Part shown: piece after piece, positions 9,964 through 43,556 of the stretch
Position numbering within the stretch: the stretch's first letter is position 1
Layout of the letters: every line of letters begins with the position of its first letter
Assembly: GCA_963744145.1 (NCBI GenBank)
Contig: CAVUSO010000001.1
Coordinates: 3,136,001 to 3,200,000, forward strand
Direction of reading: 5' to 3'
From: an uncultured cyanobacterium
GTDB lineage: Bacteria; Cyanobacteriota; Cyanobacteriia; Cyanobacteriales; CAWUOF01
Length of the DNA: 64,000 nucleotides
Program-made: the position numbers and the translations under genes
The notes under the pieces: generated by a model
The model's database searches: none
What the model was told of the DNA's origin: nothing
Seen by the model: the letters and a program-made list of their open reading frames with translations, nothing else

Positions 9964-10080
9964 AGTGTAACATTTTGCAAAGTTTTAGAACAATTTAGAC
10001 AATTTATACACTAATTAAACACTTAGTTAAACATCATTTATAATCGAAGTATGTCAGACTAGCTATTGTTAACAAATTAA
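9964..10080 (+). promoter_or_regulatory. Conserved upstream module copy A with HLR1-like repeat
   Basis: AGTGTAAC-AT-TTTGCAAA, then TTATACACTAATTAAAC...GTTAAACA...CGAAGTATGTCAGACT. Homologous to 22665, 37178 and 42099. Confidence 0.65.
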
Positions 10081-10189
10081 CCAAATCAGCGAAATATCAT
10101 AGCTAATAAAGCTTTTTTAAAGACGCTGTCAACTGGGTATCTAGAATCACTACTAATTACTCCAAACTTAACCTACTAGAGGAAGCATC

Positions 10190-10723
10190 ATGAGTACAGC
10201 AATTGATAACTTTAACAAACAACTTCTTGACAATGTAAAAGCAGTTGAAGATCGGGCAATATCGCTGAAGGAAAGCCTTCACTGTGCGACGAAAAAAACT
10301 CAAGATGAAGTTCAATCAAAACTAAACGAAGTGAAAAACAAACTAACCACAAATAAACAAGAATTTGAGCATTATTTGGTAAGTATAAAAACTCAATTCG
10401 AGGAAAAAGAAGCTGAGTTGAAGTCAAATGTCGAAGAATGGAAAGCGAGTCGTGAAGTCAAGAAACTTGAACATCGGGCTGATAAAGCTGAAAACTATGC
10501 AGCGACAGCGATCTTATTCGCAATAGCAGTTCTAGAAGAAGCTGAAAAAGCAACTTTAGAAGCAATTTCTACCAGATTCGATGCAGAAGCAGCAGCGGGA
10601 ACTACTCAGAAGGAAGAGGCAGAATTGGCGGTAGGAACTACTCAGAAGGAAGAGGCAGAATTAGCGGTAGGAACTACTCAGAAGGAAGAGGCAGAATTGG
10701 TGGCAGGAACTACTCAGAAGTAA
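10190..10723 (+). CDS. Hypothetical coiled-coil protein with C-terminal 12-aa repeats
   Basis: RBS GAGG. Heptad-rich. GTTQKEEAELAV repeats. Confidence 0.75.
   Translation: MSTAIDNFNKQLLDNVKAVEDRAISLKESLHCATKKTQDEVQSKLNEVKNKLTTNKQEFEHYLVSIKTQFEEKEAELKSNVEEWKASREVKKLEHRADKAENYAATAILFAIAVLEEAEKATLEAISTRFDAEAAAGTTQKEEAELAVGTTQKEEAELAVGTTQKEEAELVAGTTQK
10598..10720 (+). repeat. 36-bp tandem repeat, about 3.4 copies
   Basis: GGAACTACTCAGAAGGAAGAGGCAGAATT(G/A)G(C/T)GG(T/C)A units starting at 10598, 10634, 10670 and 10706 (partial). Confidence 0.95.
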
Positions 10724-10800
10724 CCAACGATTAAACCAAGCTGGTCGGGCAGTTAGTTGACATCGATACCCATTCCATTTTCTCAAAAGGAAACAAATTC

Positions 10801-11340
10801 ATGGCATATACACATACCATTGTTGCTCATTTCCCCTCCCATACAGAAGCAGAAAGAGTTGTATTGGAACTGCAAAAAGAAGGCTTCGATCTACAAAAGC
10901 TCTCGATCATTGGCAAAGACTACCATTCCACTGAACAGGTGCGTGGATTTCTCACCTGGAAAGATACAGCCAAAGCTGGTGCGATCGGAGGTGGATATTG
11001 GGGTAGCTTCGTCGGAGGTTTATTTGGCATTTTAGCAGGAGCTGGAGTGCTGTTTATTCCCGGAATGGCTCCGATCATTATTGCTGGTCCCATTGCTGGA
11101 ATATTAGCAGGTTGGCTAGAAGGAACGGTTGTTGGTGGTGTTGGTGCTGCTGCTGTAGGAGGACTAGCAGGTGCCTTGGGAGGGTTAGGAATCCCGAAGG
11201 ATGAGGTACTCAAGTATGATACTAAAATCCAAGCAGGTGAGTTCATCATTCTGGTAACAGGTACTGACGAGGATGTCTCTCAGGCAAAGCAAAGTCTAGA
11301 CAAAATCAGTCATAAAGTCAGCCTTTCGATTCCTGTCTAG
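10801..11340 (+). CDS. General stress protein (YflT/17M-like, Gly-rich membrane hairpin)
   Basis: AERVVLELQKEGFDLQKLSIIGKD, Gly-zipper TM segment, GLGIPKDEVLKY. Confidence 0.8.
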   Translation: MAYTHTIVAHFPSHTEAERVVLELQKEGFDLQKLSIIGKDYHSTEQVRGFLTWKDTAKAGAIGGGYWGSFVGGLFGILAGAGVLFIPGMAPIIIAGPIAGILAGWLEGTVVGGVGAAAVGGLAGALGGLGIPKDEVLKYDTKIQAGEFIILVTGTDEDVSQAKQSLDKISHKVSLSIPV

Positions 11341-11522
11341 TGCTTTACCAATGGTAAAAGATTAAACTTGGTTGGTGGGCATTGTTTAATGTGTGAATGA
11401 CGCGACAATCAAGTTATGTTCCAAACGGATTATTTGGTAGAAAATCTGATGGCTCAAATGCTAATTGTTCATGTCATTCACACCGCTAAGTTTCCTTTTT
11501 TTTCGAGTCTGGAACACTTTTT

Positions 11523-11666
11523 AAACAGCTATTTGCATATATTTAACATGAACAGATTTTTCTTTTCACTAGTTACTTTCGAGGGAGAAATTTTGGTGTA
11601 AATCCCTACTTGTAAATTCCAATTCTATTAACATGAGGTAGCTTTTTTAGGCAGTTAGCGATCGCG
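11523..11666 (+). pseudogene. Degraded atpR (N-ATPase) 5' remnant
   Basis: TTTAACATGAACAG...CCAATTCTATTAACAT..GGTAGCTTTTTT..GCAGTTAGCGATCGC matches 42279-42443. Confidence 0.6.
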
Positions 11667-11793
11667 GTTCCTATCTGTAGTCTAACAACACAATTTAGGG
11701 CGATCGCGCTCATCTTCTGTTTGCAGCAAATTTACCTTAGACCTCAATATCGGTGTGCCTTGAACTTGGCTTCAAAAAGGAAAATAGAACCAA

Positions 11794-14207
11794 ATGAAGA
11801 AAAATACACTTTCCCCAGAACTGCTCCACAAAATAGACGCATACTGGCGTGCTGCTAACTATCTGTCGGTTGGGCAAATTTATCTCTACGACAATCCGTT
11901 GCTGAAGGAGCCGCTAAAACTCTCCCATGTCAAACCTTTAGTGGTCGGACATTGGGGCACAACGCCGGGTCAGAACTTCATCTATGTCCACTTGAATCGG
12001 GTGATCAGAAAGTATGACCTGGATATGTTCTATATCTCTGGTCCTGGTCATGGTGGTCCGGCGCTGGTAGGTAATACTTACCTCGAAGGTTCCTACAGTG
12101 AGATTTATCCAAACATCAGCCAAGACGAAGCCGGACTGAAAAAGCTGTTCAAGCAATTCTCATTTCCCGGCGGAATTTCCAGTCATGTTGCGCCAACAAC
12201 ACCAGGGTCAATTCACGAAGGAGGCGAGTTGGGATACTCCCTCAGCCATGCTTTCGGAGCTGCATTTGACAATCCCGATCTGATCGTTAGCTGCATCATT
12301 GGTGATGGTGAAGCGGAGACGGGTCCATTGGCGACCGCATGGCAGTCCAACAAGCTGCTCAACCCGATTACCGACGGTGCCGTTCTACCCATCCTACATC
12401 TGAATGGCTACAAAATCAACAATCCGACGATCCTGGCTCGCATTGAGCATGAGGAGTTAGAGCAATTTCTCCGAGGCTGCGGCTGGACACCTTACTTTGT
12501 AGCAGGCGATGAGCCAGAAAAGATGCACGAACTCATGGCTAGCACTCTAGACCAGGCGATCGAGGACATTCAGCAAATCCGCAGCAATGCCAGGAACAAC
12601 CATAACACCATGCGACCGCGTTGGCCGATGATCGTTCTTAAGTCGCCCAAGGGCTGGACAGGACCGAAATTTGTCGATGGTCTGCCCAACGAAGGTACAT
12701 CGCGATCGCACCAGGTGCCGCTGATTGTGGATGCCCAACATCCAGATCATGTCCAACAGTTAGAAAGCTGGATGAAGAGCTACAAAGCAGAAGAACTATT
12801 CGATCAGGATGGACGGTTGTTGCCGGAATTGGCAGAGTTAGCACCCCAGGGCGATCGACGGATGGGCGCGAACCCCCACACCAATGGCGGTCTGTTGCTG
12901 CGTGATCTGTGTCTGCCAAACTTCTATGACTATGCGGTGTCTGTACCTTCTCCCGGTGCTGTTGATGGTCAGGACACAATGATCCTAGGCAAATTCCTGC
13001 GTGATGTGATCAAGCTGAATCAACAGCAGAGGAATTTCCGCATCTTCGGCCCGATGAAACACTCTCGAATCTTTTGGGCGCGGTGTTTGAAGTCACGAAT
13101 CGTCAGTGGGAAGGACGGGAGGAAAAGAACGATGAGTTTCTCGCGCCTGCCGGACGGGTGGTGGATTCAATGCTCAGTGAACACCAGTGTGAGGGTTGGT
13201 TGGAAGGCTATTTGCTAACTGGGCGACACGGACTATTCAACAGCTATGAAGCCTTTATTCGGATCGTTGATTCGATGTTCAGTCAACATGCCAAATGGCT
13301 GAAAGTCACATCAGAACTACCTTGGCGACAGCCGATCGCCTCGCTGAACTATCTGCTGGCTTCCCACGTCTGGCAACAGGATCACAACGGCTTTACCCAC
13401 CAAGACCCGGGCTTCCTTGATCACGTTATCAATAAAAAAGCCGATATCGTGCGTGTATATCTACCACCTGATGCGAACTGTCTGCTGTCGGTCTTTGATC
13501 ACTGCTTGCGGAGCCGACACTACGTGAATGTAGTCGTGGCTGGTAAACACGCGCTCCCGCAATGGCTAACTATGGATGCAGCGATTACACATTGCACAGA
13601 AGGAATCGGGATCTGGCAATGGGCTAGTAATGATCAGGACGCTGAACCAGACGTAGTGATGGCTTGCTGTGGTGATACACCGACCCTTGAGATTTTGGCT
13701 GCTGTTTCTATCCTGCGTCTGCATCTGCCCGATCTGAAAATTCGGGTGATCAATGTCGTCGATCTGATGAAGTTACAGTCCGCTAGTGAACACCCGCATG
13801 GTCTGAGTGAAAAGGACTACGACTCACTGTTTACAACAGACAAACCCATTATCTTTGGCTTTCATGGCTATCCCTGGCTGGTACACCGACTGACCTATCG
13901 CCGACTCAACAACAACCTTCATGTTCGGGGCTACAAGGAAGAAGGCACGATCACAACAGCCTTTGATATCAGGGTGCAAAATGACCTGGATCGCTTTCAT
14001 CTGGTCCAAGATGTGGTCGATCGTCTGCCCAATTTGGGTACTAAGGGGGCTTATCTCAAGCAAATGATGCAGGACAAGCTGATTGAACACAAACAATACA
14101 TTAACCAGCACGGCGAAGACTTACCAGAAATCCGCAACTGGAAGTGGAGTTCGGAAGCAATGCAGAAAGGAAAACCGTTGGTGGAAAAAATGCCTGTACT
14201 GAACTGA
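11794..14207 (+). CDS. xfp: Phosphoketolase copy 1, 1-nt frameshift at ~13050
   Basis: [24 protein letters not shown]. Near-identical to 23118-25532. GGCCCGAT lacks one C relative to G-P-D-E in copy 2. Confidence 0.9.
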
Positions 14208-14264
14208 AACAATAGCTTTCGCGTACTGTTGGTAAATTTTTTGGAATTTTTCAGGACATCGAAC

Positions 14265-14534
14265 ATGACTACCCAGATTGAAGTTGAAGTTGTAGGTCGG
14301 AACACTCCGTTCACCAGGAATGGGGAATCATTACCAGGATCAAAGGTAGTGGTGCAAAGGACATGGCAGGTCATCCGGTCGAAAAAATCACAGTCGGTCT
14401 GGATGGCTTGCGCGATCGCTACAAAGAATGCCTCAAAGAATATTTTCAAATGGTCGCTTGCTTGGCCAAGTAACCCCAGATGATTACTGTGAGCATCGGA
14501 GCAAATACAATGCCATAATGGCAGGGCAGGGAGC
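14265..14534 (+). pseudogene. Collapsed remnant of the 60-aa ORF and class I aldolase
   Basis: ATGACTACCCAGATTGAAG (as 25578), fba fragment GACATGGCAGGTCATCCGGTCGAAAAAATCAC (as ~26210) and the fba 3' end, with large deletions. Confidence 0.85.
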
Positions 14535-15164
14535 ATGAACGCAAGTATACCCACCCCCCTACACATTTACTTCATTCGGCATGGTGAAACCGAATGGTCG
14601 CTCTCCGGCCAGCACACTGGTCGCACAGACATTCCTTTGACTGCGAACGGTGAGGACGAGGGACGGAAACTGGGTCAGTACCTCCGGGACATCCAATTTG
14701 CCCATGTGCTGACTAGCCCGCTCCATCGCGCCCGACAGACTTGTGCGTTGGTCGGGCTGGAGCAATTCCCAGAAATTGAGGCGGATTTGACCGAATGGGA
14801 CTATGGCGATTACGAAGGACAGCGATCTGTGGATATTCGCCAGGTGCGTCCAGGTTGGAATATTTTTCATGACGGTTGTCCGCAAGGTGAAATGCCTACA
14901 CAAATTTCCGATCGTGCTGATCGGCTCATCAATCGTCTTCGCACAATGGACGGAAATATTGCACTTTTTTCCCACGGTCAGTTCGGTGGTGTTTTAGCTG
15001 TGCGCTGGATTGGATTAGCGGTGGTCAAAGCGCAGCATTTTCCCCTTAGTACGGCGTCGTTGAGCATTTTGGCCTTTGACAACCACCACCCCACAGTGTC
15101 AGTCATTGCCTTGTGGAATAATGTGGCTTCTCACGCCATATTCAACGGTCAAAAGCTTTGGTAA
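14535..15164 (+). CDS. Histidine phosphatase (PGAM family) copy 1
   Basis: RHGETEWS...SPL.RA..T...E.DYG..EG...SHG. Confidence 0.92.
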   Translation: MNASIPTPLHIYFIRHGETEWSLSGQHTGRTDIPLTANGEDEGRKLGQYLRDIQFAHVLTSPLHRARQTCALVGLEQFPEIEADLTEWDYGDYEGQRSVDIRQVRPGWNIFHDGCPQGEMPTQISDRADRLINRLRTMDGNIALFSHGQFGGVLAVRWIGLAVVKAQHFPLSTASLSILAFDNHHPTVSVIALWNNVASHAIFNGQKLW

Positions 15165-15172
15165 ACAACTCA

Positions 15173-16360
15173 ATGAAAAGAGCTAATCCACGCATCCTGA
15201 CGATCAATGGTGGCTCGTCGAGTATCAAGTTCGCCCTATTCGAGTCTGGTGACTCCCTGCAACGGATACTGGAGGGCCAGATTGAACGGATTGGACTACC
15301 AGAAACTACCTGGTGGGTAAAAAGCTTAAACCAAGCAGACAACTTTTCGCAATTAGTGTCCGCACCGGATTACCAAGTGGCGGTGGGCACTCTGATGGAT
15401 TGGATCGAGGAACGCAATAGTCGTGATCCCTTGACGGCGGTGGGGCATCGTGTGGTGCATGGCGGGCCGAAGTATAGCAATCCGCAGTGGATTACTCCGG
15501 AAATGATTGAGGAACTGCACCAGATTAGTCCATTTGACCCTGAGCATCTGCCGGAAGAGATCCTGTTGACCGAGGCATTTCATCGCCGCTTTCCGGATCT
15601 GCCCCAAATAGCCTGTTTCGACACGGCTTTTCACCATGACCTGCCACAAGTAGCCCGGTTGTTGCCAATTCCGCGTCGCTATGAAGCGCAAGGTGTGCGA
15701 CGATACGGGTTTCATGGGTTGTCATATTCGTTCCTTATGGAAGAATTATCTCGTCTGTATGGAACAGAAGCAACACAATGTCGGGCAATTCTCGCTCACA
15801 TCGGGAATGGCACGAGCTTGACTGCGGTGCATCATGGTAAACCAGTAGATACTAGCATGAGTTTCACCCCGACAGCTGGAGTGCCGATGAGTACGCGATC
15901 GGGTGATCTTGATCCGGGATTGCTTTGCTATCTGGCTCGCACTGAAAAAATGAGCGTGAAGCAATTGAATGAGATGGTTAATTTCCAGTCCGGATTGCTC
16001 GGCATATCCGAAACTAGTTCTGATATGCGTGACTTGCTTGATCGGGAGAAACAGGACGAGCGGGCGGCGATCGCGATCGCGGTGTTTTGCTACCAGATCA
16101 AGAAATGGATCGGCGCATTCACCGCAGCATTGGGCGGACTGGATACGCTAGTGTTCGCGGGTGGAATCGGGGAGAATGCACCCATAATCCGCGCCCGAAT
16201 TTGTGATGGACTGGGGTTTCTTGGGATCGAACTTGAAGAAAAGCGCAATGCAGGGAATGAGGGTATAATTTCTGCCCAAACCAGCAGTGTTCCTGTCCGC
16301 GTCATTCGCACAGATGAAGCACTGATGATTGCACGCTTGGTGTGCCACGCACTTGGATAA
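15173..16360 (+). CDS. ackA: Acetate kinase copy 1
   Basis: INGGSSSIK, GHRVVHGG, FDTAFH, RRYGFHG, TRSGDLDP, GGIGEN. Confidence 0.95.
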   Translation: MKRANPRILTINGGSSSIKFALFESGDSLQRILEGQIERIGLPETTWWVKSLNQADNFSQLVSAPDYQVAVGTLMDWIEERNSRDPLTAVGHRVVHGGPKYSNPQWITPEMIEELHQISPFDPEHLPEEILLTEAFHRRFPDLPQIACFDTAFHHDLPQVARLLPIPRRYEAQGVRRYGFHGLSYSFLMEELSRLYGTEATQCRAILAHIGNGTSLTAVHHGKPVDTSMSFTPTAGVPMSTRSGDLDPGLLCYLARTEKMSVKQLNEMVNFQSGLLGISETSSDMRDLLDREKQDERAAIAIAVFCYQIKKWIGAFTAALGGLDTLVFAGGIGENAPIIRARICDGLGFLGIELEEKRNAGNEGIISAQTSSVPVRVIRTDEALMIARLVCHALG

Positions 16361-16484
16361 TAAACTTCTTGCAAAAATAATTAGGACAGGCAAGATGCCT
16401 GTCCCACAACAAAAAAAGACTCTTGTGGGACGGGCATCCTGCCTGTCCAATAAATTGCTCAAAAGTACTTTTGGAAGAGGTCTA
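16361..16484. mobile_element. MITE-like element with internal REP-like palindrome
   Basis: Ends TAAACTTCTTGCAAAA / TTTTGGAAGAGGTCTA. Inner GGACAGGCAAGATGCCTGTCCCACAA...TTGTGGGACGGGCATCCTGCCTGTCC. Confidence 0.7.
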
Positions 16485-18050
16485 ATGATGACTAAACAAA
16501 TTTCTCTCCATACCGCTTCTAAAAATCTATCTAGTCCACAGGATTTACTATCAACTTTGCAAGAACTTCGCCAGACCGTTGCCAGCGAAGGACAAGCTAC
16601 TTTTAATCAGTGGCGATCGCACATTCAGCGTCCTGAGTTTCTTTCCAGTGCTTTGAATTTAGCTGAATATCTAGCTTTACGTCGCCATGATCTACGCTCC
16701 CTCCAAACGGCACTAATCCCTTGGGGATTATCTTCCTTAGGACGGATTGAAGCAAGGGTGATGCCCAATCTTGATGCTGTCATTGCCACTTTGGCAGTCT
16801 TATGTGGCTCTAAATCTGTTGGGCACATCAAGCGTCCACCAATTGAGTCCTTTTTTGAGGGCGATCGCTTACTCCAACAGCACACGGAAGAATTATTTGG
16901 TCAGTCCCCACCCCAGCGTCGGGTCAGGATTATGGTCACCCTACCCAGTGAAGCTGCTACTAACTATGAAATGGTGCGAGAAATGATTCAACGAGGGGCA
17001 ACCTGTCTGCGAATTAACTGTGCCCATGATTCAACTGAATCCTGGAAAAGCATGATCGAGCATATCCGTCAAGCAGAACAGGAAACAGGAACACCTTGTA
17101 AAATCATGATGGACTTAGCTGGTCTGAAAATCCGCACGGGACCAGTATTTGCACCACTTGATCAAAAACGGTTATTTAAAGGAGATCAGATCCTGCTGTT
17201 GCGGTGTGTACCTAAACTTGAAAGTGAAGCAAAAACAGATAAGTCTACACCATCACAGGTAGACCATTTCCAAACTTGCTGTACAGCTCCCGAAATCCTC
17301 GATTTGTTAGGGGTTGACACTCCTGTGTATATCGACGATGGCAAGATTCGGACTCGCGTAGTTGATACCCATTACCCAGTAGGTGATGGAAAACCTGGAC
17401 TTTTACTCCAAGTAACTCATGCGAGCCCCAAAGGAGTCAAACTATTACCTGAAAAGGGTTTGAACTTTCCAGACACGGTTTTGCCACTCAGTCCACTGAC
17501 TGAAAAAGATTTATCTGATTTGGATTTTGTAGCTATCCATGCAGATATTATTGGCTATTCTTTTGTGCAATGTTCTAACGATATTGAATTACTTCAAAAA
17601 GAATTGAATAAGCGCTTAGTTAAACAGAATTTCCAACCAGCGATCGTTGCCAAGATTGAAACCGCGATCGCAGTTTCCAATCTACCAGAATTAATCATCT
17701 ATGCAGCAGGTAAACAATCCTTTGGCGTCATGATTGCTAGAGGTGACTTAGCGGTTGAAATTGGATACCAACGTTTAGCAGAGATCCAAGAAGAAATTCT
17801 CTGGCTATGTGAAGCTGCTCATATTCCTGTTATTTGGGCAACTCAAGTATTGGAAAGTTTAGTAAAAAACGGAACACCTTCGCGGGGAGAGATGACCGAT
17901 GCAGCAATGGCTGAACGCGCTGAGTGTGTGATGTTAAACAAAGGACCGTTTATTGCCGAAGCAATTACCATTCTGGATGACGTTCTTACACGCATGGAAA
18001 CCCATCAATTGAAAAAAACTCCCCAATTGCGGGCACTTCATCTGTGGTAA
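16485..18050 (+). CDS. pyk: Pyruvate kinase (N-terminally extended type)
   Basis: RINCAHD, IDDGKI, KGLNFP, VAKIET, MIARGDLAVE, WATQVLES, ECVMLNKG. Confidence 0.92.
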   Translation: MMTKQISLHTASKNLSSPQDLLSTLQELRQTVASEGQATFNQWRSHIQRPEFLSSALNLAEYLALRRHDLRSLQTALIPWGLSSLGRIEARVMPNLDAVIATLAVLCGSKSVGHIKRPPIESFFEGDRLLQQHTEELFGQSPPQRRVRIMVTLPSEAATNYEMVREMIQRGATCLRINCAHDSTESWKSMIEHIRQAEQETGTPCKIMMDLAGLKIRTGPVFAPLDQKRLFKGDQILLLRCVPKLESEAKTDKSTPSQVDHFQTCCTAPEILDLLGVDTPVYIDDGKIRTRVVDTHYPVGDGKPGLLLQVTHASPKGVKLLPEKGLNFPDTVLPLSPLTEKDLSDLDFVAIHADIIGYSFVQCSNDIELLQKELNKRLVKQNFQPAIVAKIETAIAVSNLPELIIYAAGKQSFGVMIARGDLAVEIGYQRLAEIQEEILWLCEAAHIPVIWATQVLESLVKNGTPSRGEMTDAAMAERAECVMLNKGPFIAEAITILDDVLTRMETHQLKKTPQLRALHLW

Positions 18051-18091
18051 TTCTTTTTACTGGCAATGCCAACTATCCCAAAAGGAATATT

Positions 18092-19201
18092 ATGATTAGT
18101 CATCAATCTCAATCAACGCAGCCCGTCGCACTACCTAACAGCGATCGCGTTGCAGTTTTGCTTGCAGGTTATGGTGAAGTACAATCTTTCCGCGATCTGA
18201 GTCTTTATAACCAAGCTGCAACTAAGTACATCGCGTCTCAGTTCTTACCGATCCCAGACTGGCTATACCCTCTGGCTGGTTGGCTGCTCACACTACAAGA
18301 TTTGTATAGTTTTGGAGTCAAGCATAATAATTTCATTTCACCTGAAAATGAGATTTTTGAAAAGCAACGTCTTGGTATTAAAGAACAGTTGCAAGAGCGA
18401 TGGGGAAATCGTGTAGAAGTATTCAAAGGCTTTTATTTCTGTCAGCCATTTGTGCAAGAAGTTGTAGCTGATATTATTGAGCAAGGTTTTCAGAATTTGC
18501 TGATTTATCCTTTGCTAGTGGTTGATTCTGCATTCACAGGCAAAATAGCTGTAGAGCAAGTCAATGAAGTTATTGCCGCAAATACATCGACCGATGAGCC
18601 GAACTATTCGATCTTCAAGACAATTCGATACATTCCAGCTTTTGCGACTGAGCCTGCTTATATTGATTTGATGGTACGTCAGATTAAGAAAACTCTGAAT
18701 CAGTCCTTTGCAAATCGTTTCTTTGAGTCTCGGATTGGGATTGTATTAACGGTTCATGGTGGTCCAGAAAAAGCCCAAGGATTGTTAACAGGGGTAATTG
18801 ATGGACAAATTCTTTACGATCGCGTGCAAGTACAGTTGCAACATGAATATCCCCTCATCTCGATCGGCTGGGTAAATCATGATATGCCTTTGATCAAATG
18901 GTCGCAACCCAATCTCAAACAAGCAGGAAAAAGCTTAATTGCAGCAGGTGCCCAAATCATTGTATTTAAACCTCTTGGTTGGGTAACAGATAATTATGAA
19001 ACTATTCTTGATGTGGAGGATGCAATTAAATCTTTGCAGCGTCAATATCCAACGGTGACTTATACTCGGTTCGGTTGTGTCAATGACGATCCTGATTTTC
19101 TAAAAATAGTAGCAGAATGGGCAAATCCTGACATTAAAGCCATGCTATCAGTGGCACAACACCATGATCATCAGCAAACTAGAAGAATTGATTTTGACTA
19201 A
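18092..19201 (+). CDS. Divergent ferrochelatase-family chelatase
   Basis: VAVLLAGYG, FCQPF, YPL, LTVHGGP, W.QP, DNYET, CVNDDPDF. No CAB tail. Confidence 0.75.
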   Translation: MISHQSQSTQPVALPNSDRVAVLLAGYGEVQSFRDLSLYNQAATKYIASQFLPIPDWLYPLAGWLLTLQDLYSFGVKHNNFISPENEIFEKQRLGIKEQLQERWGNRVEVFKGFYFCQPFVQEVVADIIEQGFQNLLIYPLLVVDSAFTGKIAVEQVNEVIAANTSTDEPNYSIFKTIRYIPAFATEPAYIDLMVRQIKKTLNQSFANRFFESRIGIVLTVHGGPEKAQGLLTGVIDGQILYDRVQVQLQHEYPLISIGWVNHDMPLIKWSQPNLKQAGKSLIAAGAQIIVFKPLGWVTDNYETILDVEDAIKSLQRQYPTVTYTRFGCVNDDPDFLKIVAEWANPDIKAMLSVAQHHDHQQTRRIDFD

Positions 19202-19241
19202 ACTTTTTGGCAATGTATTTTTTCAGATTAGAATATTTAAA

Positions 19242-20309
19242 ATGATTCGTTTAAAAAAGGAGTTACAACAATCCAGAGTAATTTTGTATCGGTTGTCTGT
19301 AGTCGTTGTTTCTGCAACTGCTATTAGCTTAGGAAGTTGTTCGTCAAATGCACCTTCAACTAATTCAGGTTCTCCTCAAATTCAATCTGCTGCGAATCGA
19401 AAAGAATTGCAGATTGTGACAACCTTTATTCCAATTACAGATTTTACCAAAGCAGTCGCAGGCGATCGCGCCCAAGTAACACAACTACTTCCCACCAATG
19501 CTGACCCCCATGACTTTCAGGCAAAACCGATCGACGATCAGAAACTAGCTAAAGCTGATGTGTTAGTTGAAAACGGACTGGGGATGGAGACATTTCTGGG
19601 GAACATGGTCAAAAATGTAGGAAATGCCAACCTGAAAGTGATTGATTCGAGTCAAGGAGTGCAGAGGATTACAACCGCATCCGTTGGAATAGGTAAACAG
19701 CAGCAAGAAACTGGAAACAATCAAGAAGAGTTCAACCCGCACATCTGGCTTGATCCCAAGCGAGCCATTCGTCAAGTAGAAAACATTCGGGATGGGTTAA
19801 TTGCTGCTGATTCCGGAGGAAAAGATGTTTACAGCAATAATGCTGCTACCTATATTCAAAGGTTGCGAGAACTCGATCAGGAAGCCACAAAAATGCTTCA
19901 GCCCTTTGCGGGTAAAACCTTTGTTGTTTTCCACGACTTTGCACCCTACTTTGCTCAGAGCTACAACTTGAAAGCCATTTTTCTGGTGGATGTACCAGAA
20001 GGTAATCCATCTCCCAAAGATGTTAAGCGAATCATGGATATGGTTAAGGTAAGCAAGCTCAAAACGCTCCTAGCGGAACCTGAGATGGGAAAAGACGCAT
20101 TTGCAGCAATAGCAAAGGATTTGCACGTTCAAGTCACTACGTTTTACTCGATGGAAACTGGTGGATCTGAAGCTCTGCAACCAGATTACTACATGACTAC
20201 TATGCGACAGAATATTAAAACTCTAGTAATAGCATTCACTGGTCAATCGACTCAATCTTTCCTGCGGTTTCCGAAGGAGTTAGAGCGAAGGTTGAGGATG
20301 TTTACTTGA
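19242..20309 (+). CDS. Zn/Mn ABC transporter substrate-binding lipoprotein (ZnuA-like)
   Basis: Lipobox LGSC. DPHDF, NGLGME, NPHIWLDP, FHD. Confidence 0.9.
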   Translation: MIRLKKELQQSRVILYRLSVVVVSATAISLGSCSSNAPSTNSGSPQIQSAANRKELQIVTTFIPITDFTKAVAGDRAQVTQLLPTNADPHDFQAKPIDDQKLAKADVLVENGLGMETFLGNMVKNVGNANLKVIDSSQGVQRITTASVGIGKQQQETGNNQEEFNPHIWLDPKRAIRQVENIRDGLIAADSGGKDVYSNNAATYIQRLRELDQEATKMLQPFAGKTFVVFHDFAPYFAQSYNLKAIFLVDVPEGNPSPKDVKRIMDMVKVSKLKTLLAEPEMGKDAFAAIAKDLHVQVTTFYSMETGGSEALQPDYYMTTMRQNIKTLVIAFTGQSTQSFLRFPKELERRLRMFT

Positions 20310-21070
20310 AGGAAATTGTACTATCAGTTGATCAACTAACCGTTTATCGGGAAAGCTACGCAGCGGTGCAAGATGTTTCTTTCTCCCTAGAATCAGGAAC
20401 AGATACATCAATCGTCGGTCCCAACGGGGGTGGTAAAACGACATTGGTTCAAGCCATTTTGGGAATTTTGCCTAGACATTCAGGTAAAATATCCATCCTG
20501 GGTCAAACCCTCACTCCTAAAGGATTTCTCCCATCACATATCCGTCAGCAAATCGCTTATTTACCACAGAACTTTCTGGTTGATCGTCGCATTCCTATCA
20601 CGGTAGAAGAACTGGTAGGTTTAGGTTGGGATAAGTTGGGGTTTCAGCTACCCTGGGTTAATCACAAAAAACGGAATCATGCTGTTCAAGATGCTTTGAC
20701 AAGGGTTAATGCAATCCGTCTCCGACATCAACTAATTGGTGGGCTTTCAGGGGGTGAAACTAAGCGGATGTTACTGGCATATTGTTTAGTTTACCCGCGT
20801 CGATTACTGATTCTTGATGAAGCTCCTGCTGGGTTAGATATGCTTGCTGAGTCAGAGTTTTATCAACTGTTATATCAACTCAAGCAAGAACAGGGTTGGA
20901 CAATTTTGCAGATTTCCCACGATCTGGATATGGTACGACAACATTGCGATCGCGTCCTCTGTATAAATCGCACCTTACGCTGTCAAGGACCCCCAGGAGT
21001 GACTCTCTCTCCCGATAATCTTTCTGCTACCTACGGAAAAGACTTTGTTCAATACCACCATTCCCATTAA
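20306..21070 (+). CDS. Zn/Mn ABC transporter ATPase (ZnuC-like)
   Basis: GPNGGGKTT, YLPQ, LSGGE, ILDE, SHD, C-terminal HHSH. Confidence 0.92.
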   Translation: MKEIVLSVDQLTVYRESYAAVQDVSFSLESGTDTSIVGPNGGGKTTLVQAILGILPRHSGKISILGQTLTPKGFLPSHIRQQIAYLPQNFLVDRRIPITVEELVGLGWDKLGFQLPWVNHKKRNHAVQDALTRVNAIRLRHQLIGGLSGGETKRMLLAYCLVYPRRLLILDEAPAGLDMLAESEFYQLLYQLKQEQGWTILQISHDLDMVRQHCDRVLCINRTLRCQGPPGVTLSPDNLSATYGKDFVQYHHSH

Positions 21071-21081
21071 CATTATTCCTC

Positions 21082-21921
21082 ATGTTTCTTCAAACAGAAC
21101 TCACTCAAATTGTTGAACTATTTCAACTACCCTTTATGCAACGGGCATTGATCGGCGGTATCCTGACTGGGTTACTAGGTGGGATTTTGGGAAGTTTTAC
21201 TATTTTAAGGCAGTTGTCTTTCTTCAGTGATGCCCTAGGACATTCAGCTTTATTAGGTCTTAGTATCGGATTTTTATTACAACTTAATCCCTCTCTGGTG
21301 TTACTTCCCTTCGCAGTTGTCTTTGCTTTAGCAGTGTCTTATTTGTTGGAACATACCCGTTTATGGACTGATGCGTTACTCAATATTATCTCTTCCTCAT
21401 CAATGGCGATCGCCATTATTACTCTCAGTTTTGTCGGGCAGTACAAAGGTGGAATAAATAACCTTTTGTTTGGAGATATTTTGGCAGTCCAAGAAGTAGA
21501 TTTAGTCTTCAGCGGTTTGCTATTAATTGTCTGCATTATGTTTATTGGGCTAACCTTGCGAACCCAAATGTTACTGACCGTAGATGAATCCTTGGCTCTT
21601 TCTCGTGGGGTATCAGTATCAACTCATCGCATGATATTTATTGTGCTACTGTCGTTAGTGGTGGGAATTTCCATTAAGTCGATCGGTGTGTTATTAGTTA
21701 GTGCATTTATAGTGATTCCAGCTTGTGCAGCCGAACTGCTTAGTCGCACATTCACACATTACCTATCGTTAGCAGTAGGATTAGGAGCATTAAGTGCTGT
21801 GTTCGGAATGGTGATTTCAGCTTGGTTTAATTTACCATCCGGTCCTAGTATTGTGGCGACGCAATTAGCAATCTTTCTAACTGCAATGGCTTTACCTCGT
21901 CTTCGCTCATTGACTCATTAG
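21082..21921 (+). CDS. Zn/Mn ABC transporter permease (ZnuB-like)
   Basis: FMQRAL, DALGHSAL, LFGDIL, PSGPSIV. Confidence 0.92.
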   Translation: MFLQTELTQIVELFQLPFMQRALIGGILTGLLGGILGSFTILRQLSFFSDALGHSALLGLSIGFLLQLNPSLVLLPFAVVFALAVSYLLEHTRLWTDALLNIISSSSMAIAIITLSFVGQYKGGINNLLFGDILAVQEVDLVFSGLLLIVCIMFIGLTLRTQMLLTVDESLALSRGVSVSTHRMIFIVLLSLVVGISIKSIGVLLVSAFIVIPACAAELLSRTFTHYLSLAVGLGALSAVFGMVISAWFNLPSGPSIVATQLAIFLTAMALPRLRSLTH

Positions 21922-22664: not shown

Positions 22665-22780
22665 TTTGTAAAGATTTGAAAACTTTTAGTACTAAATATA
22701 CAAATTATACACTAATTAAACCTTTGGTTAAACATTATTTCTAACCGAAGTGTGTCAGACTAATATTATTAATAAATTCA
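22665..22780 (+). promoter_or_regulatory. Conserved upstream module copy B with HLR1-like repeat
   Basis: TTTGTAAA-GA-TTTGAAAA...TATACAAATTATACAC...GTTAAACA...CGAAGTGTGTCAGACT. Confidence 0.7.
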
Positions 22781-25532: not shown

Positions 25533-25577
25533 AACTAAGCTTTCTAAATTTTTTGGACTTTTTTAAGGAGATCGAAC

Positions 25578-25760: not shown

Positions 25761-25767
25761 GTGAAAG

Positions 25768-25879: not shown

Positions 25880-25902
25880 AAGGCACAAAACGGAGAGATG
25901 AC

Positions 25903-27554: not shown

Positions 27555-27600
27555 ACAATCAAGGGAATGGGACAGGAAAACGCGCATACAGAAAAAGAAG

Positions 27601-29757
27601 ATGAAAAAGTCCCTAGATGATCTCCACCATTATATCTCGAATATTTCCGCACATTCTGATGTGTGGGTAGGATCTCCTTTGCCTTTTGGGACCCAGGAAA
27701 CTGGAGGAGGGGTGAATTTCGCCATTTTCAGCCGTGATGCCAGCCGCATTCGACTAGAGTTATTCGACCATCCCGAAGATGCAATACCTGCCCGGTCTAT
27801 CGATCTGGATTCAGCGTGCCATCGGACTGGCGATGTATGGCATGTTTGGGTGAAGGGAATAGGTTCCGGTCAATTCTATGCTTACCGCGTGGACGGTCCT
27901 TACGAACCCAGCAAAGGACATCGTTTTAATTTTAACCGTCTTCTCCTCGATCCCTGTGCGACTGCGATTTCGCAACTGCCCCCCTGGGATTTCGGATCAG
28001 CACGCGGATATGACCCATTGGCACCAGAGCAAGACTTATCTTTCTCGAAGAAGGACAATGCCAGGTCGATGCCAAAATGCTTATTTGTCAACGATTCCTT
28101 CGAGTGGAATGGAGATCAGCCACTCCGACATCCGTGGTCGAAGACCATTATTTACGAAGTGCATATTCGTGGCTTTACTATTCATCCCAAGTCAGGTGTG
28201 GATCATCCGGGCACCTACCGAGGTCTGATAGAAAAAATTCCCTATCTCAAAACCCTGGGCGTGACCGCCGTGGAACTGATGCCCGTGCAAGAGTTCAATG
28301 ACACTCCAATGTCATACAGGAATCCGCAAACCAATCAACCACTCAAGAATTATTGGGGATACGATCCGGTGGCTTTCTTTGCACCCAAAGCTTCCTACAG
28401 CAGTTCAGGTGGTTTAGGACAGCAGAAGCTAGAGTTCAAGGAAATGGTCATGGCTCTTCACAATGCCGATATCGAAGTGATCCTGGATGTAGTGTTCAAT
28501 CACACGGCGGAGGGTAACGAACTGGGTCCAACGCTCTGTTTTCGCGGGATAGATAACACGATTATCTATACCCTGGAAGGTGATAAACGTTACTACAAAA
28601 ACTATACTGGTACAGGCAACACCATCAACGCCAACCATCCTGTGGTGCGTGACTACATCTTGGCCGCCCTTCGTTATTGGATGGTTGAGATGCATGTAGA
28701 TGGATTCCGGTTTGACTTGGCATCGGTTCTCAGCCGGGATGGTGATGGTAATTTGCTAGCTAATGCACCGCTGCTTGAACGGATTGCTGAAGACCCGATC
28801 TTGAGGGACGTGAAAATCATTGCCGAGGCGTGGGACGCTGCTGGGGCCTATGAGGTGGGTAGTTTTTCCGAGCGGCGGTGGGCGGAATGGAACGGCAGGT
28901 ATAGAGATGATGTCCGGCGTTTTTGGCGTGGTGATGAGGGGATGCTCGGTTTGTTTGCTAGCCGGATCTGTGGCAGTGCCGACATCTATACTAAGTCCGG
29001 CAAAGGTCCCGAAAGCAGCATCAATTTTGTCACATGCCACGATGGTTTTACTCTGAACGATCTGGTGAGCTATCGCTACAAGCACAATGAAGCAAACGGA
29101 GAGAACAACCAGGACGGGAGTAACGCCAATTTTAGCGATCACTACGGAGTTGAAGGTGAAACAACAGATCCCGCGATCGCATCCATTAGGAAACGCCAGA
29201 TTAAGAATTTCCTGCTCACTCTCCTAATCTCACGGGGCGTGCCGATGCTCCTCGGTGGGGACGAATTTCGTCGCACACAAATCGGTAATAACAACCCCTA
29301 CTGCCAGGACAACGCAACGAGCTGGTATGACTGGAACTGTCTGGAACAGCACAGGGAGATTTTTCGCTTCACCTGTGGCATGATCGCCTTTCGGTGTGCC
29401 CATCCCGTTCTGAGTAAGGAACAATTCTACAGGGATAGTGAGATCCAGTGGTTTAGTCCGCAAGGAGGATTGCCTAACTGGGCTGACCCGAAAGCAAAAC
29501 AGTTTGCCTGTCTAATCTATGAAAATGAGCGGCACGTACTTTGCCTGATGTTCAATGCTGGTAACGATGCAGTCGATTTCAGGTTGCCTCCTTTACCCGG
29601 ATTTCAGTGGCATCTAGCGGTCGATACCTCTCGCGAAGCACCAGAATATCTGTTTGCTGTAACTGAGGAGCCGCTTTGCGAAGATCCACACACTTACCAT
29701 TTGAGATCCCGATCAAGCGTCATCCTTCTAGCTCGATGTACAGATGAGGAAAAGTAG
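27601..29757 (+). CDS. glgX: Glycogen debranching enzyme
   Basis: NYWGYDP, DVVFNHT, GFRFDLAS, IAEAWD, TCHDGFTL, NNNPYCQDN. Confidence 0.96.
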   Translation: MKKSLDDLHHYISNISAHSDVWVGSPLPFGTQETGGGVNFAIFSRDASRIRLELFDHPEDAIPARSIDLDSACHRTGDVWHVWVKGIGSGQFYAYRVDGPYEPSKGHRFNFNRLLLDPCATAISQLPPWDFGSARGYDPLAPEQDLSFSKKDNARSMPKCLFVNDSFEWNGDQPLRHPWSKTIIYEVHIRGFTIHPKSGVDHPGTYRGLIEKIPYLKTLGVTAVELMPVQEFNDTPMSYRNPQTNQPLKNYWGYDPVAFFAPKASYSSSGGLGQQKLEFKEMVMALHNADIEVILDVVFNHTAEGNELGPTLCFRGIDNTIIYTLEGDKRYYKNYTGTGNTINANHPVVRDYILAALRYWMVEMHVDGFRFDLASVLSRDGDGNLLANAPLLERIAEDPILRDVKIIAEAWDAAGAYEVGSFSERRWAEWNGRYRDDVRRFWRGDEGMLGLFASRICGSADIYTKSGKGPESSINFVTCHDGFTLNDLVSYRYKHNEANGENNQDGSNANFSDHYGVEGETTDPAIASIRKRQIKNFLLTLLISRGVPMLLGGDEFRRTQIGNNNPYCQDNATSWYDWNCLEQHREIFRFTCGMIAFRCAHPVLSKEQFYRDSEIQWFSPQGGLPNWADPKAKQFACLIYENERHVLCLMFNAGNDAVDFRLPPLPGFQWHLAVDTSREAPEYLFAVTEEPLCEDPHTYHLRSRSSVILLARCTDEEK

Positions 29758-29780
29758 CAGACAGTTTTAACGGAGGACAA

Positions 29781-30974
29781 TTGAAAAAAGCTAATCCACG
29801 CATCTTGACGATTAATGGCGGCTCATCGAGCATCAAATTCGCACTATTCGAGTCTGGTGACTCTCTCAGACGGATACTGGAGGGCGAGATTGAGCGGATT
29901 GGAATGCCAGAATCCACCTTGCGGGTAAAAGGATTGAACCAGGCGGACAATTTTTCGCGGTTATTGTTGGCACCAGATCACACCGTGGCGGTGGGCAATC
30001 TGATGGATTGGATCGAGGAACGCAGCAGTCGGGAGGCATTAACTGCGGTGGGGCATCGGGTGGTGCATGGCGGACCGAAGTATAGCAATCCGCAGCGAAT
30101 CACTCCAGAAATGATTGAGGAACTACACCAGATTAGTCCATTTGATCCTGAGCATCTCCCGGAAGAGATCCTGTTAACCGAGGCATTTCATCACCGCTTT
30201 CCGGATTTGCCCCAAGTGGCTTGTTTCGACACAGCTTTTCACCATGACCTGCCACAGGTAGCTCGGTTGTTGCCGATTCCGCGCCGCTACGAAGCGCAGG
30301 GCGTGCGACGATATGGTTTTCACGGGTTGTCATATTCGTTCCTGATGGGAGAACTGTCCCGCCTGTACGGAACAGAAGCAGCACAAGGTCGGACTATCCT
30401 TGCTCACATCGGGAATGGTGCGAGCCTATCCGCGGTGCATAACGGCAAGCCCGTGGATACTAGCATGAGTTTTACTCCGACAGCAGGGGTGCCGATGAGT
30501 ACGCGCTCCGGTGATCTCGACCCGGGACTGCTTTGGTATCTAGCTCGCACTGAAAAAATGAGCGCGAAGCAATTCAACGAGATGGTTAATTTTCAGTCTG
30601 GGTTGCTCGGAATATCGGAAACCAGTTCTGATATGCGTGACTTGCTGAAGATTGAGACACAGGACGAGCGGGCAGCGATCGCGATCGCGTTGTTTTGCTA
30701 CCAGATCAAGAAATGGATCGGCGCATTTGCAGCAGCATTGGGCGGAGTGGATACGTTAGTCTTCGCGGGTGGCATTGGAGAGAACGCCCCTATAGTCCGC
30801 GCCCGGATTTGCGATGGGCTGGGTTTTCTTGGCATCGAACTCGAAGAAAAGCGAAATGCGGCGAATGATGGGGTGATTTCTGCGGAGACTAGCAGAGTTC
30901 CCGTCCATGTGATTCACACAGATGAAGCACTGATGATTGCACGTTTGGTGTGCCACACACTTGGACTTAGCTGA
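29781..30974 (+). CDS. ackA: Acetate kinase copy 2
   Basis: Same motifs as copy 1. TTG start after GGAGG. Confidence 0.95.
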   Translation: MKKANPRILTINGGSSSIKFALFESGDSLRRILEGEIERIGMPESTLRVKGLNQADNFSRLLLAPDHTVAVGNLMDWIEERSSREALTAVGHRVVHGGPKYSNPQRITPEMIEELHQISPFDPEHLPEEILLTEAFHHRFPDLPQVACFDTAFHHDLPQVARLLPIPRRYEAQGVRRYGFHGLSYSFLMGELSRLYGTEAAQGRTILAHIGNGASLSAVHNGKPVDTSMSFTPTAGVPMSTRSGDLDPGLLWYLARTEKMSAKQFNEMVNFQSGLLGISETSSDMRDLLKIETQDERAAIAIALFCYQIKKWIGAFAAALGGVDTLVFAGGIGENAPIVRARICDGLGFLGIELEEKRNAANDGVISAETSRVPVHVIHTDEALMIARLVCHTLGLS

Positions 30975-37177: not shown

Positions 37178-37270
37178 TTTGTAACGATTTGCAAGTTTTT
37201 AGAACTAAATATACAAATTATACGCTGAACAAACTATTAGTTAAACACGACTTCTAATCGAAGCATGTTA
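37178..37270 (+). promoter_or_regulatory. Conserved upstream module copy C with HLR1-like repeat
   Basis: TTTGTAAC-GA-TTTGCAAG...TATACAAATTATAC...GTTAAACA...CGAAGCATGT. Confidence 0.65.
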
Positions 37271-37401
37271 TTACTTTAACAAGTAGTTATTAGATATAAC
37301 GGAAGTTTTACGTTGAATGGAAACAATAAATAAAAGTGGTTGGCATGATTGGCAAAACTTTGTAGTTGAGCGAAAAGTAGAAGAAAGTGGGTTTTTAGAT
37401 A

Positions 37402-37627: not shown

Positions 37628-37633
37628 ATGCAA

Positions 37634-40427: not shown

Positions 40428-40545
40428 ACGGGAGCAAGGCACTGAAAAGCCCTTCCAGACAAGTAGAACATCATCTTCGAGTCCCGCTAGAACAAAGCCC
40501 TGCTGACAATGCTTTCACTATCACCACTTTGGAGCGCAATACTTT

Positions 40546-41112
40546 ATGTCTCACTACCTGGAAGCAAATGCTCATCCTTCAGACCAACAGCAAGCCGCTA
40601 AGTTACTGCGATGGCTGGGCTGGGCTGGTTTTTGGCTACAGCTTGTTTTAACCGTTGTTTCTGGACTGATTTTAGGGTTTGCGGTGCTAGATCCAAATCT
40701 CAACCTCAACCTCAAATCGGGCATCGGTTTGCTGTCCGTGCTTGGGGGCATAGCGGCGTTAGGCTTCAGCCTCTACTGGTGCTTTCGCTATGTTCGCCTT
40801 GGGCGGCAATTGGATGCAACAGAGCCTGCTTTACATCCTGGTCGCAAGGAAACCATTCAAGTGTTGCAGCTCGGTGTTTTAGTCAACTTGATAGCGATGT
40901 TATTGACGTTAGTCAGTATTGAAACGATTGTTGGCAGCCTGCTGCTCAAAACGCTATCGTTGCCACAAGGTGCGGCTGTCTATCGCACAGGGCAACTGAT
41001 TGAGCCGATCGATATTTTTGTTGTCCAGGCAAATATCAGCATGATTATGGCTCAATTTGTGGGCATCAGCATTCCCTTTTGGTTGGCAAGCCGTGTGGAA
41101 CACCGCTTATAG
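40546..41112 (+). CDS. DUF3611 (Tic21-like) membrane protein
   Basis: GW.GFWLQLVL...DIFVVQAN pattern. Confidence 0.75.
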   Translation: MSHYLEANAHPSDQQQAAKLLRWLGWAGFWLQLVLTVVSGLILGFAVLDPNLNLNLKSGIGLLSVLGGIAALGFSLYWCFRYVRLGRQLDATEPALHPGRKETIQVLQLGVLVNLIAMLLTLVSIETIVGSLLLKTLSLPQGAAVYRTGQLIEPIDIFVVQANISMIMAQFVGISIPFWLASRVEHRL

Positions 41113-41274
41113 CGATCGCTATGAGCGCTTTAATCGTGATTGCGTTGAATAATTTTCTAAGGTACTCCCTGACTGAATATAAACTATGCAACAGAGAGTA
41201 CTGTAGGATTGATTGATAAGTTATCTTAATGGCTTCATCAAGGTAGTTGAGGGGCACCACCGATATTTACCGTT

Positions 41275-41823
41275 TTAATTTGATGGTTGAGAATGAGTTT
41301 TAGGCTGTTGTTCATGTTCTTGTTTTTGTTCAGGTGTTAAGATTGCATTAAGTTGGCTTTTTTCATTTTCGTAAATTGTTTTGAGTTCTGATTTTTGGGC
41401 ACTCGTAAGAGTTAGATTAGCCTTGCGATGTTGTTTTCTAGCAATCTGAAGCTGTGTTTTTTGTTCAGCAGTAAGAACAACTGCTATTTTTTCGTGAATA
41501 GACTCATGAATTGATTTTACTTGTGATTTCTGATCATCACTCAAGTTGAGGTCAAATTTTTGTTCTGGTTCTACTATAGGTTCAAGCTGTGCTTTTTGTT
41601 CAGCAGTGAGAACAGCATCCATTTGTTGCCGAGTAGACTGATAAATTGATTTGATTTGTGATTTTTGATCGTCGCTCAGATTCAGATTTTTGAATTCATC
41701 AGCTTGTTCATCTATATGAGCTGATTCTACAATAGCAAACTCAGTGAAAGAAAAAATCACAGGTACAGCAGTAATATTTAAATCAATTACACTGGGTAAT
41801 AGAAAATAAGTTTCAAGTTGCAT
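41275..41823 (-). CDS. Spy/CpxP-like (LTxxQ) repeat protein
   Basis: LNLSDDQKSQ(I/V)KSI twice, LTAEQK twice, LTPEQK. Confidence 0.75.
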   Translation of the reverse strand: MQLETYFLLPSVIDLNITAVPVIFSFTEFAIVESAHIDEQADEFKNLNLSDDQKSQIKSIYQSTRQQMDAVLTAEQKAQLEPIVEPEQKFDLNLSDDQKSQVKSIHESIHEKIAVVLTAEQKTQLQIARKQHRKANLTLTSAQKSELKTIYENEKSQLNAILTPEQKQEHEQQPKTHSQPSN

Positions 41824-42098
41824 GGTAAAAATCCTAATATCTTTAACCTACTTTATATGATAGTTGTTTAAATCTTTAAGCAACAGATTAAAAAGTAATT
41901 ACTTCAATAAGTAGAAAGGTCATATCTAATAGTAATAATGCAATATTTTGTACTAAATATATAGCGGGTTTACATTCTAACAATGTCAAGAAAGAGTTTA
42001 GTTATTGGGATTAAAATAATCGGAGGAAGAGGGCAGATTCTCTGGCTACAATATTCTAGCCCATCAATGGATTACACAATTGTAATTCATTGATCAAG

Positions 42099-42215
42099 TT
42101 TGTAACGATTTGTAAGCTTTTAATACTAAGTATACAAATTATACACTCATCAAACGTTTTGTTAAACATTATTTATAACAGAAGTGTGTTAGACTGATAT
42201 TCTATTAATAAATTG
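42099..42215 (+). promoter_or_regulatory. Conserved upstream module copy D with near-perfect HLR1 repeat
   Basis: TTTGTAAC-GA-TTTGTAAG is the reverse complement of (G/T)TTACA(T/A)(T/A)-N2-(G/T)TTACA(T/A)(T/A) with 1 mismatch. Confidence 0.72.
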
Positions 42216-43552: not shown

Positions 43553-43556
43553 GCAA

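Follow-up and report, generated by a model that had tools for sequence, protein, structure and literature searches.

How do acquired genes come under common control in a host genome? A stretch of 64,000 nucleotides from an uncultured cyanobacterium (assembly GCA_963744145.1, contig CAVUSO010000001.1, positions 3,136,001 to 3,200,000 of the forward strand; hereafter the window) raises this question, as four similar blocks of DNA in it head operons for phosphoketolase fermentation, an H+-pumping P-type ATPase and an N-ATPase. An earlier note on this DNA had interpreted the blocks as a duplicated promoter cassette with an HLR1-like site for the regulator RpaB. The blocks are best described as copies of a composite promoter, hereafter the module, and it seems likely that this explanation, together with a shared switching of the module-headed operons, is correct; the fermentation and ion-pump genes would then probably answer to a common switch.

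The four blocks are found at 9964, 22665, 37178 and 42099, all on the + strand, and are called c1 to c4 here. Copy c1 (9964..10079) heads a unit encoding a 177-aa protein, a YflT-domain protein and the phosphoketolase gene xfp1, c2 (22665..22778) the xfp2 unit, c3 (37178..37275), the most diverged copy, the H+-ATPase gene and c4 (42099..42215) the N-ATPase genes, in agreement with the downstream units named by the earlier note. Aligned with each other, the four copies are 66–87% identical in pairwise comparison, and a search of the whole genome (7.7 Mb) with c2 yielded six matches with E values of 5e-55 to 2e-14, followed by a gap to the next-best match at E 0.064, indicating that the blocks are homologous and not chance resemblances. 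The opening box described for the 5′ end is present in each copy, reading AGTGTAAC-AT-TTTGCAAA in c1 (9964-9981), TTTGTAAA-GA-TTTGAAAA in c2 (22665-22682), TTTGTAAC-GA-TTTGCAAG in c3 (37178-37195) and TTTGTAAC-GA-TTTGTAAG in c4 (42099-42116). Among the internal motifs, GTTAAACA and GAAG(T/C)(A/G)TGT occur in all four copies, while two others hold in part: TATACAAATTATAC is exact in c2 to c4 and reads TAGACAATTTATAC in c1, and TTAAAC is found in c1 and c2 but replaced by CAAAC in c3 and c4. The modules, taken with their leaders, have a GC content of 27–40%.

All six copies are directed towards genes 3′ of them. Two of the six lie outside the window, both on the - strand. One (C1:3259624-3259722) heads a row of CsbD, DUF5670, CsbD and CsbD genes; behind the other (C1:3274686-3274794) there is just a 16-codon open reading frame (ORF), apparently a remnant beginning MANKALF. 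Pairwise identity among the six is 60–87%. With a profile derived from 70 modules of the family, the same six copies were recovered (E 9e-28 to 3e-17), together with one weak, diverged module-like site, C1:663377-663470 (E 4e-4), which has an extended -10 of its own, TGGCATAAT, and lies about 230 nt 5′ of an ORF. The 130-kb span that holds the six copies is interspersed with housekeeping genes (pgk, accA, psaK, ppa, ftsW) and is therefore not a single island. In a maximum-likelihood tree of the modules, built on a short alignment and with modest supports, c1, c2, c3, c4 and the copy at 3274686 form one clade (support 0.76) that adjoins the N-ATPase modules of Nostoc (0.77), and the CsbD copy falls among fasciclin-type modules from elsewhere.

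Is the module a product of this locus? Such a local origin is not supported, since the module belongs to a family widespread in cyanobacteria. A DNA search within the same order, in which two candidates per genome were scored, found it in at least 13 of 400 other genomes. A strict pattern of 22 specified bases, searched in 185,579 species represented by a single genome apiece, matched 61 stretches, 57 of them in records with cyanobacterial names; the remainder consists of three records named 'uncultured bacterium' and one metagenome-assembled genome (MAG) labelled Acetobacteraceae that carries a Nostoc-type module and downstream gene. The genera include Nostoc, Scytonema, Calothrix, Tolypothrix, Rivularia, Stigonema, Brasilonema and Pelatocladus, and further records come from Richelia, Pleurocapsa, Waterburya, Microcoleus, Microseira, Symplocastrum, Plectonema and from Chroococcales and Nostocales MAGs. 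Five Nostoc/Aulosira plasmids carry the module as well. Strict pattern and order-level loci together give 78 distinct instances, of which 70 entered an alignment; the eight left out are devoid of the 3′ half (L077_2600, L095_2450, L095_1544, L029_2858, L052, L072, L077_602, L076).

Which genes follow the module elsewhere? Counted over the 78 instances, with Pfam assignments on representatives, the family mostly heads genes for fasciclin, small zinc-ribbon-like proteins, N-ATPase, CsbD and P-type ATPases. Downstream are fasciclin-domain genes in 29 instances, small proteins starting with M(L/T/A)NKALLT in 11, the N-ATPase gene atpR in five, CsbD and DUF4360 genes in two each and a receiver-domain gene in one. 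The other 28, eight truncated copies included, contain among others single cases of Pyridox_ox_2, 6-phosphogluconate-dehydrogenase-like, GMC oxidoreductase and rhodanese genes and of a P-type ATPase fragment, and two of DUF1816. In Scytonema, Microseira, Calothrix, Tolypothrix and Nostoc spongiaeforme the module is followed by a fasciclin gene, a gene for a receiver-only protein of about 170 aa and the gene for the orange carotenoid protein (OCP); such clusters were seen at loci L079 (2450-5039), L041, L051, L083, L065, L067, L098 and L049. The microalgal fasciclin protein AstaP binds carotenoids (PMC10147662). By analogy, the cyanobacterial fasciclin beside OCP may handle carotenoids for OCP. 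The genome studied here has a fasciclin gene of its own (C1:7511360), and no module was found upstream of it (C1:7511100-7511360), so that the set of module-headed genes varies between genomes; CCCCCTT..AAGGGGG hairpin repeats occupy the space 5′ of that gene instead.

What kind of element is the module? Invariant or near-invariant columns in the 70-row alignment read CAAnnTATAC, AAAC, TnAAACATnATTT and TGTCAnnCT, and the last of these, the 3′ box, reads as an extended -10, TGT-CATACT. A TG stands one base 5′ of the hexamer in 71/78 instances and the hexamer conforms to nAnnnT in 68/78 (CATACT 33, CATGCT 14, CAGACT 5), with the T and the G of the TG and the second base of the hexamer (A) invariant in all 70 rows. 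The family thus carries an extended -10 of the sigma-70 type, of which c3 lacks the final T. Moreover, the distance from hexamer to start codon is 36–49 nt for the 29 fasciclin genes, 30–42 nt for the 11 NKALLT genes, 33 nt for the two DUF4360 genes, 43 and 65 nt for the CsbD genes and 89–227 nt for atpR. When +1 is placed 7 nt after the hexamer, conservation peaks at -63, -49, -33 and -12. Near-invariant boxes are TACAAnTTATACG at -69 to -57, TCAAACGCTTG at -52 to -42 and AAACATGATTT (AAACATnATTT) at -38 to -28, in addition to the extended -10 peak at -15 to -7; conservation is weaker in the HLR1-like box (-103 to -86), a loose upstream box (-83 to -73) and TTGTTAAC (+1 to +13). A TTGACA-like -35 hexamer was not found in the family. 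By eye, TC(A/T)AAC is seen three times between -52 and -22 with a spacing of 12 bp.

In the window, the extended -10 is TGT-CAGACT in c1 (10052-10060, start predicted near 10067) and c2 (22753-22761, start near 22768) and TGT-TAGACT in c4 (42187-42195, start near 42202); in c3 the TG at 37266-37267 is followed by TATTAC. An 11-nt box precedes it in each copy, AAACATCATTT at 10029-10039 in c1, AAACATTATTT at 22730-22740 in c2 and at 42164-42174 in c4, and AAACACGACTT at 37243-37253 in c3. Two other candidate promoters were rejected. The TATAAT of c1 (10039-10044), also the pick of the promoter scanner, was dropped as -10, because the family mostly has TCTAAC there and thus a C at the essential second position. 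On the reverse strand of c4 the scanner proposed TTAACA-16-TATAAT, which was dropped because all four bases occur in the family at the position of its would-be final T and because the genes invariably lie beyond the opposite end. A metatranscriptome run contained 12% of sampled words; it yielded contigs of a relative, 90–99% alike, from which start and strand are not readable. One of them covers 37469-37945, of which only 29 letters lie inside the ATPase gene, too few for bridging. In view of the extended -10, the spacing to the start codons and the lack of a conserved RNA structure, the module is best described as a composite promoter and not as the RNA of a 5′ untranslated region. The earlier note had suggested that the conserved 3′ part might be a second transcription factor site or such an RNA; this part would rather be the core promoter.

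How well do other explanations account for the same features? A transcribed cis-regulatory RNA, either a riboswitch-like leader or a small RNA, would be in keeping with a long, highly conserved element directly 5′ of genes and with conservation that extends about 15 nt beyond the predicted start (TTGTTAAC). However, RNAalifold found 0 consensus pairs among the 70 sequences, and the sole hairpin candidate (CTAACAnC / GnTGTTAG around the -10), picked by hand, had standard pairs in 59.6% of cells as compared to 58.7 ± 0.9% in shuffles. The 70-row alignment revealed no conserved promoter 5′ of the module, and Rfam gave no match above the gathering threshold in the window, the best around c4 being a microRNA family at E 9.7. 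Neither a covarying structure nor an Rfam match was thus obtained, and an RNA element appears highly improbable. About equally hard to credit is a small mobile element, akin to a miniature inverted-repeat transposable element (MITE), that lands upstream of genes. Several copies do lie within 130 kb, with transposase and Uma2 genes nearby, and c4 is flanked by a 15-nt inverted repeat of 80% complementarity (42091-42105 / 42205-42219); yet of three copies examined only c4 has a terminal inverted repeat, unlike a MITE family, the orientation of the module and its distance to the start codon are fixed, it resides upstream of orthologous fasciclin genes across orders, and c2 moved within a larger segment that includes coding sequence.

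Alternatively, the -38 to -28 box and TGT-CATACT could form a dedicated -35/-10 pair for an alternative sigma factor of group 2 or 3. CsbD and YflT proteins are general-stress proteins of the SigB regulon in Bacillus, which would speak for a stress sigma factor, and the -35 region of the module is a near-invariant 11-mer unlike TTGACA. The J-Box of SigJ is GGGaAtacT with an invariant GGG (PMC6495340), and its aAtacT resembles the module hexamer. The J-Box itself finds no match: in the module the sequence is (A/G)TGTCATACT, with TGT in place of the GGG. A TG-n-hexamer is what primary-type sigma factors ordinarily use as extended -10, and the strong conservation between -69 and -42 would be left unexplained, so that an alternative sigma factor is quite unlikely. 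The SigJ J-Box promoters of Nostoc punctiforme nevertheless offer a parallel, as they define a regulon by a conserved extended -10 (aAtacT, comparable to cAtacT) combined with a weak -35, though without the further ~90 bp of conserved upstream sequence found in the module (PMC6495340). Neither AAACATGATTT nor TGTCATACT was found in the readable supplements of that paper.

Does RpaB control the module? The HLR1 consensus consists of two (G/T)TTACA(T/A)(T/A) repeats 2 nt apart (PMC6525291). In the copies of this genome the pattern KTTACAWWNNKTTACAWW lies on the - strand with 1–3 mismatches in 16 specified positions: one each in c2 and c4, two each in c1, c3 and the copy at 3274686, and three in the CsbD copy. 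In the whole genome, perfect sites number only 15, those with one mismatch 82 and those with two 513; an hli gene taken as control has a site with one mismatch over its core promoter in the same orientation, and an RpaB equivalog is encoded (398 bits, cut-off 330). Given the few mismatches, this rarity, the hli control and the RpaB equivalog, the resemblance to HLR1 in this genome is fair, and to this extent the claim of the earlier note stands. Its link to light and redox control is a different matter, as it hangs on this poorly conserved box. Among the 70 aligned modules only 18 have two mismatches or fewer (fasciclin 12/29, AtpR 3/5, NKALLT 1/11, CsbD 0/2, DUF4360 0/2, other 2/21); the weaker half-site is present with 0–1 mismatch in 22/70 and the other in 44/70, and whole clades carry unrelated sequence at this position. 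Furthermore, the positions of functional HLR1 sites peak in Synechocystis at -51 for activation and at -5 for repression (PMC6525291), whereas the box is centered at about -94 from the predicted start. The RpaB/light reading is accordingly unproven, the box being the least conserved and, going by the predicted start, outside both positions. A true HLR1 bound by RpaB, tying the operons to the light/redox regulon, would have precedent on an energy-state gene, as an HLR1-like element in the promoter of atpT, a gene concerned with ATPase activity, binds RpaB in vitro (PMC9241938), and elsewhere the module heads the clusters of fasciclin, receiver protein and OCP. Against it stands, in addition, that the most conserved boxes of the module are not HLR1-like, and we regard it as unlikely. 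What the module shares with HLR1/RpaB promoters is an AT-rich setting with a pair of TTACA-type octamers spaced by 10 bp; what sets it apart is that this box, a putative binding site, would be at about -94, is poorly conserved and is one of five.

How did the genes behind the modules get there? The genome has a GC content of 39.4%, with a standard deviation of 2.5% over 4-kb windows. The cargo behind c1 to c3 is clearly richer in GC (xfp1 50.4%, xfp2 51.1%, rest of unit 2 51.0%, H+-ATPase 54.0%), and the region at 32–36 kb of the window reaches 54.6%, the genome maximum. By contrast, c1 with its leader has 29.6%, c2 with an atpR remnant 34.4%, c3 with leader 39.5% and c4 with leader 27.4%; the N-ATPase genes have about 43%. 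The compositionally foreign nature of the genes behind the modules, as proposed in the earlier note, is thereby upheld for cargo of 50–54% GC. No xfp gene was found in the genome outside this region; xfp genes of thirty relatives are only 59–71% identical, and that of Stigonema is 90% identical. Homology between c2 and c4 covers about 380 nt at ~80% identity. It takes in the module, the leader and some 55 codons at the beginning of atpR, which behind c2 form a truncated atpR-like ORF on the + strand (22862..23053), and it stops near a GCGATCGC site. As c2 still carries the leader and the 5′ part of atpR, it arose by duplication of the 5′ end of the N-ATPase operon. A duplicated cassette thus accounts for c2 at least, but probably not for xfp1. 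Units 1 and 2 are duplicates of each other (89% identity over xfp, 85–86% over His_Phos_1 and ackA), and unit 1 contains a 58-nt relic of atpR between the YflT gene and xfp1 (11619-11676, + strand; blastn, 84% to 22973-23030) as well as a 156-nt aldolase relic (14316-14471), both of which show its derivation from a unit-2-like ancestor by deletion. Since c1 and c2 are only 80% identical (77% in the multi-copy alignment) and the genes for the 177-aa and YflT proteins come first, a copy of the xfp unit seems to have landed, without a module of its own, behind an existing module-driven gene pair. A similar principle is known from Acaryochloris, in which acquired genes came under an ancestral RpaB network of the host via promoter elements; here, unlike there, a whole 115-bp promoter moved together with a gene fragment (PMC11633204).

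How could the module bring these operons under common control? Probably, sigma-70-type RNA polymerase reads the extended -10 (TG-n-CATACT/CAGACT) of the ~115-bp module, which spans roughly -103 to +15, and should start transcription about 7 nt further. One or more DNA-binding regulators would occupy the upstream boxes and set the time at which the promoter is active. All operons with a module would then be switched together, and foreign genes would have entered this control either by recombining with 5′ regions that already bore a module or by inserting behind them. Phosphoketolase is linked to dark and anaerobic formation of ATP and acetate in cyanobacteria. The module-headed cargo comprises phosphoketolase and acetate kinase, an H+ pump, the N-ATPase and CsbD and YflT proteins, and genes for glycogen phosphorylase, debranching enzyme and phosphoglucomutase are all nearby. 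This combination suggests that ATP from substrate-level phosphorylation is spent on ion pumping under energy limitation, and the program could serve to energize the membrane from stored glycogen without photosynthesis or respiration, for example in darkness, anoxia or drying. Many of the module-bearing records are, by their titles, lichen and plant symbionts or subaerial genera, which fits with a drying and rewetting program without proving it.

Several observations weigh against a composite promoter with shared switching. All positions rest on sequence pattern, and c3 has a weak, poor -10 and lies ~640 nt from its gene. In Stigonema (L092) the module adjoins the 90%-identical xfp yet points away from it, beside genes of insertion-sequence type. 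At C1:3274626-3274806 the sixth copy runs up against a convergent PPK2 gene, facing its 3′ end and abutting its stop codon; it may be a relic or, if active, the driver of an antisense RNA to ppk2. Clustering of the neighborhoods detected no recurrent DNA-binding gene beside the modules. In Anabaena PCC 7120, a strain that may or may not carry the module, xfp and ackA do not respond to salt or drying (PMC9804601).

Which regulator might read the module? As a more tentative proposal, for which we see somewhat less than an even chance, the module could mark a so far undescribed, cyanobacteria-wide regulon for survival of low energy and drying; its 115-bp promoter would be portable together with 5′ gene fragments and capture acquired operons, and its regulator would read the TC(A/T)AAC repeats with 12-bp spacing at about -50 to -25. 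Members of the proposed regulon would be CsbD, the fasciclin/OCP clusters and ATP-driven pumps for H+ and Na+, joined in this genome by the ATP-yielding phosphoketolase fermentation. The module family itself appears to be undescribed, as literature searches by sequence string and keyword found no matching description. OrrA is a candidate in the sense of a regulator lead only: its salt and dehydration regulon in Anabaena PCC 7120 is likewise a stress regulon of terrestrial-type cyanobacteria, and genes for PRC-barrel (AvaK-domain) proteins, which recur beside modules at nine loci, count as a further likeness; in contrast, Anabaena xfp and ackA are not induced, and the accessible text gives no binding motif (PMC9804601). 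FurC (PerR), which is reported to target fas1 of Anabaena directly (PMC10406281), was rejected, as a hand alignment of its 19-nt consensus with the module showed no more than the 7-mer AAATCAT in common. The module provides a sequence-defined handle on the regulon and a bait to find its regulator, and allows prediction of co-controlled genes in dozens of terrestrial and symbiotic cyanobacteria. Moreover, the join of a native AT-rich promoter to GC-rich cargo can still be seen, and a stranded atpR fragment bears witness to the recombination, which makes the locus a clear case for studying how metabolic genes of foreign origin come under regulation in a new host. Should the proposed function be true, phosphoketolase fermentation and ATP-driven ion pumps would constitute one survival program.

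The genes behind the window copies were assigned by Pfam unless stated otherwise and are all on the + strand. Unit 1 (10190..21921) begins with the 177-aa protein without assigned function, the YflT-domain protein and xfp1 and continues with His_Phos_1, acetate kinase, pyruvate-kinase-like, ferrochelatase-like and ZnuA/ABC/ABC-3 genes. Its xfp1 consists of two overlapping ORFs (11794-13218 and 13074-14207), owing to a frameshift or an assembly error, and is 94% identical to xfp2 at the protein level. Unit 2 (23118..30974) encodes xfp2, class I fructose-bisphosphate aldolase, His_Phos_1, isoamylase-type debranching enzyme and acetate kinase. The type IIIA H+-efflux P-type ATPase gene (37917-40427; TIGR01647, 1054 bits) is followed by a DUF3611 gene (40546-41112). 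The N-ATPase genes (42285..49466; alternate F1F0 beta, TIGR03305, 779 bits) are arranged as atpR, a, c, b, alpha, gamma, a 350-nt gap, beta, epsilon and AtpQ-like. Canonical N-ATPase operons have beta, epsilon and Q first, and judged against this order the operon looks rotated, with the module at the new 5′ end.

Some neighboring genes may be mentioned in addition. On the - strand of the window (34795-36506), phosphoglucomutase is split into two ORFs, and a metatranscriptome contig of a close relative has one extra G after 35661, within the overlap of these ORFs. Beyond the sixth copy, on the same strand as the copy, follow genes for DnaJ, a MerR-type protein and a Mg-type P-type ATPase. Four genes with adenylate/guanylate cyclase domains cluster around the modules (window 6898-9426, - strand, and C1:3203960-3215028); one of these cyclases, of CHASE2-PAS architecture, is divergent from c1 and adjoins an Hpt-domain gene. 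Directly 3′ of the N-ATPase genes, genes for a protein with an AbiJ N-terminal domain and for a reverse transcriptase (window 51457-55088) have the look of a small defense patch.

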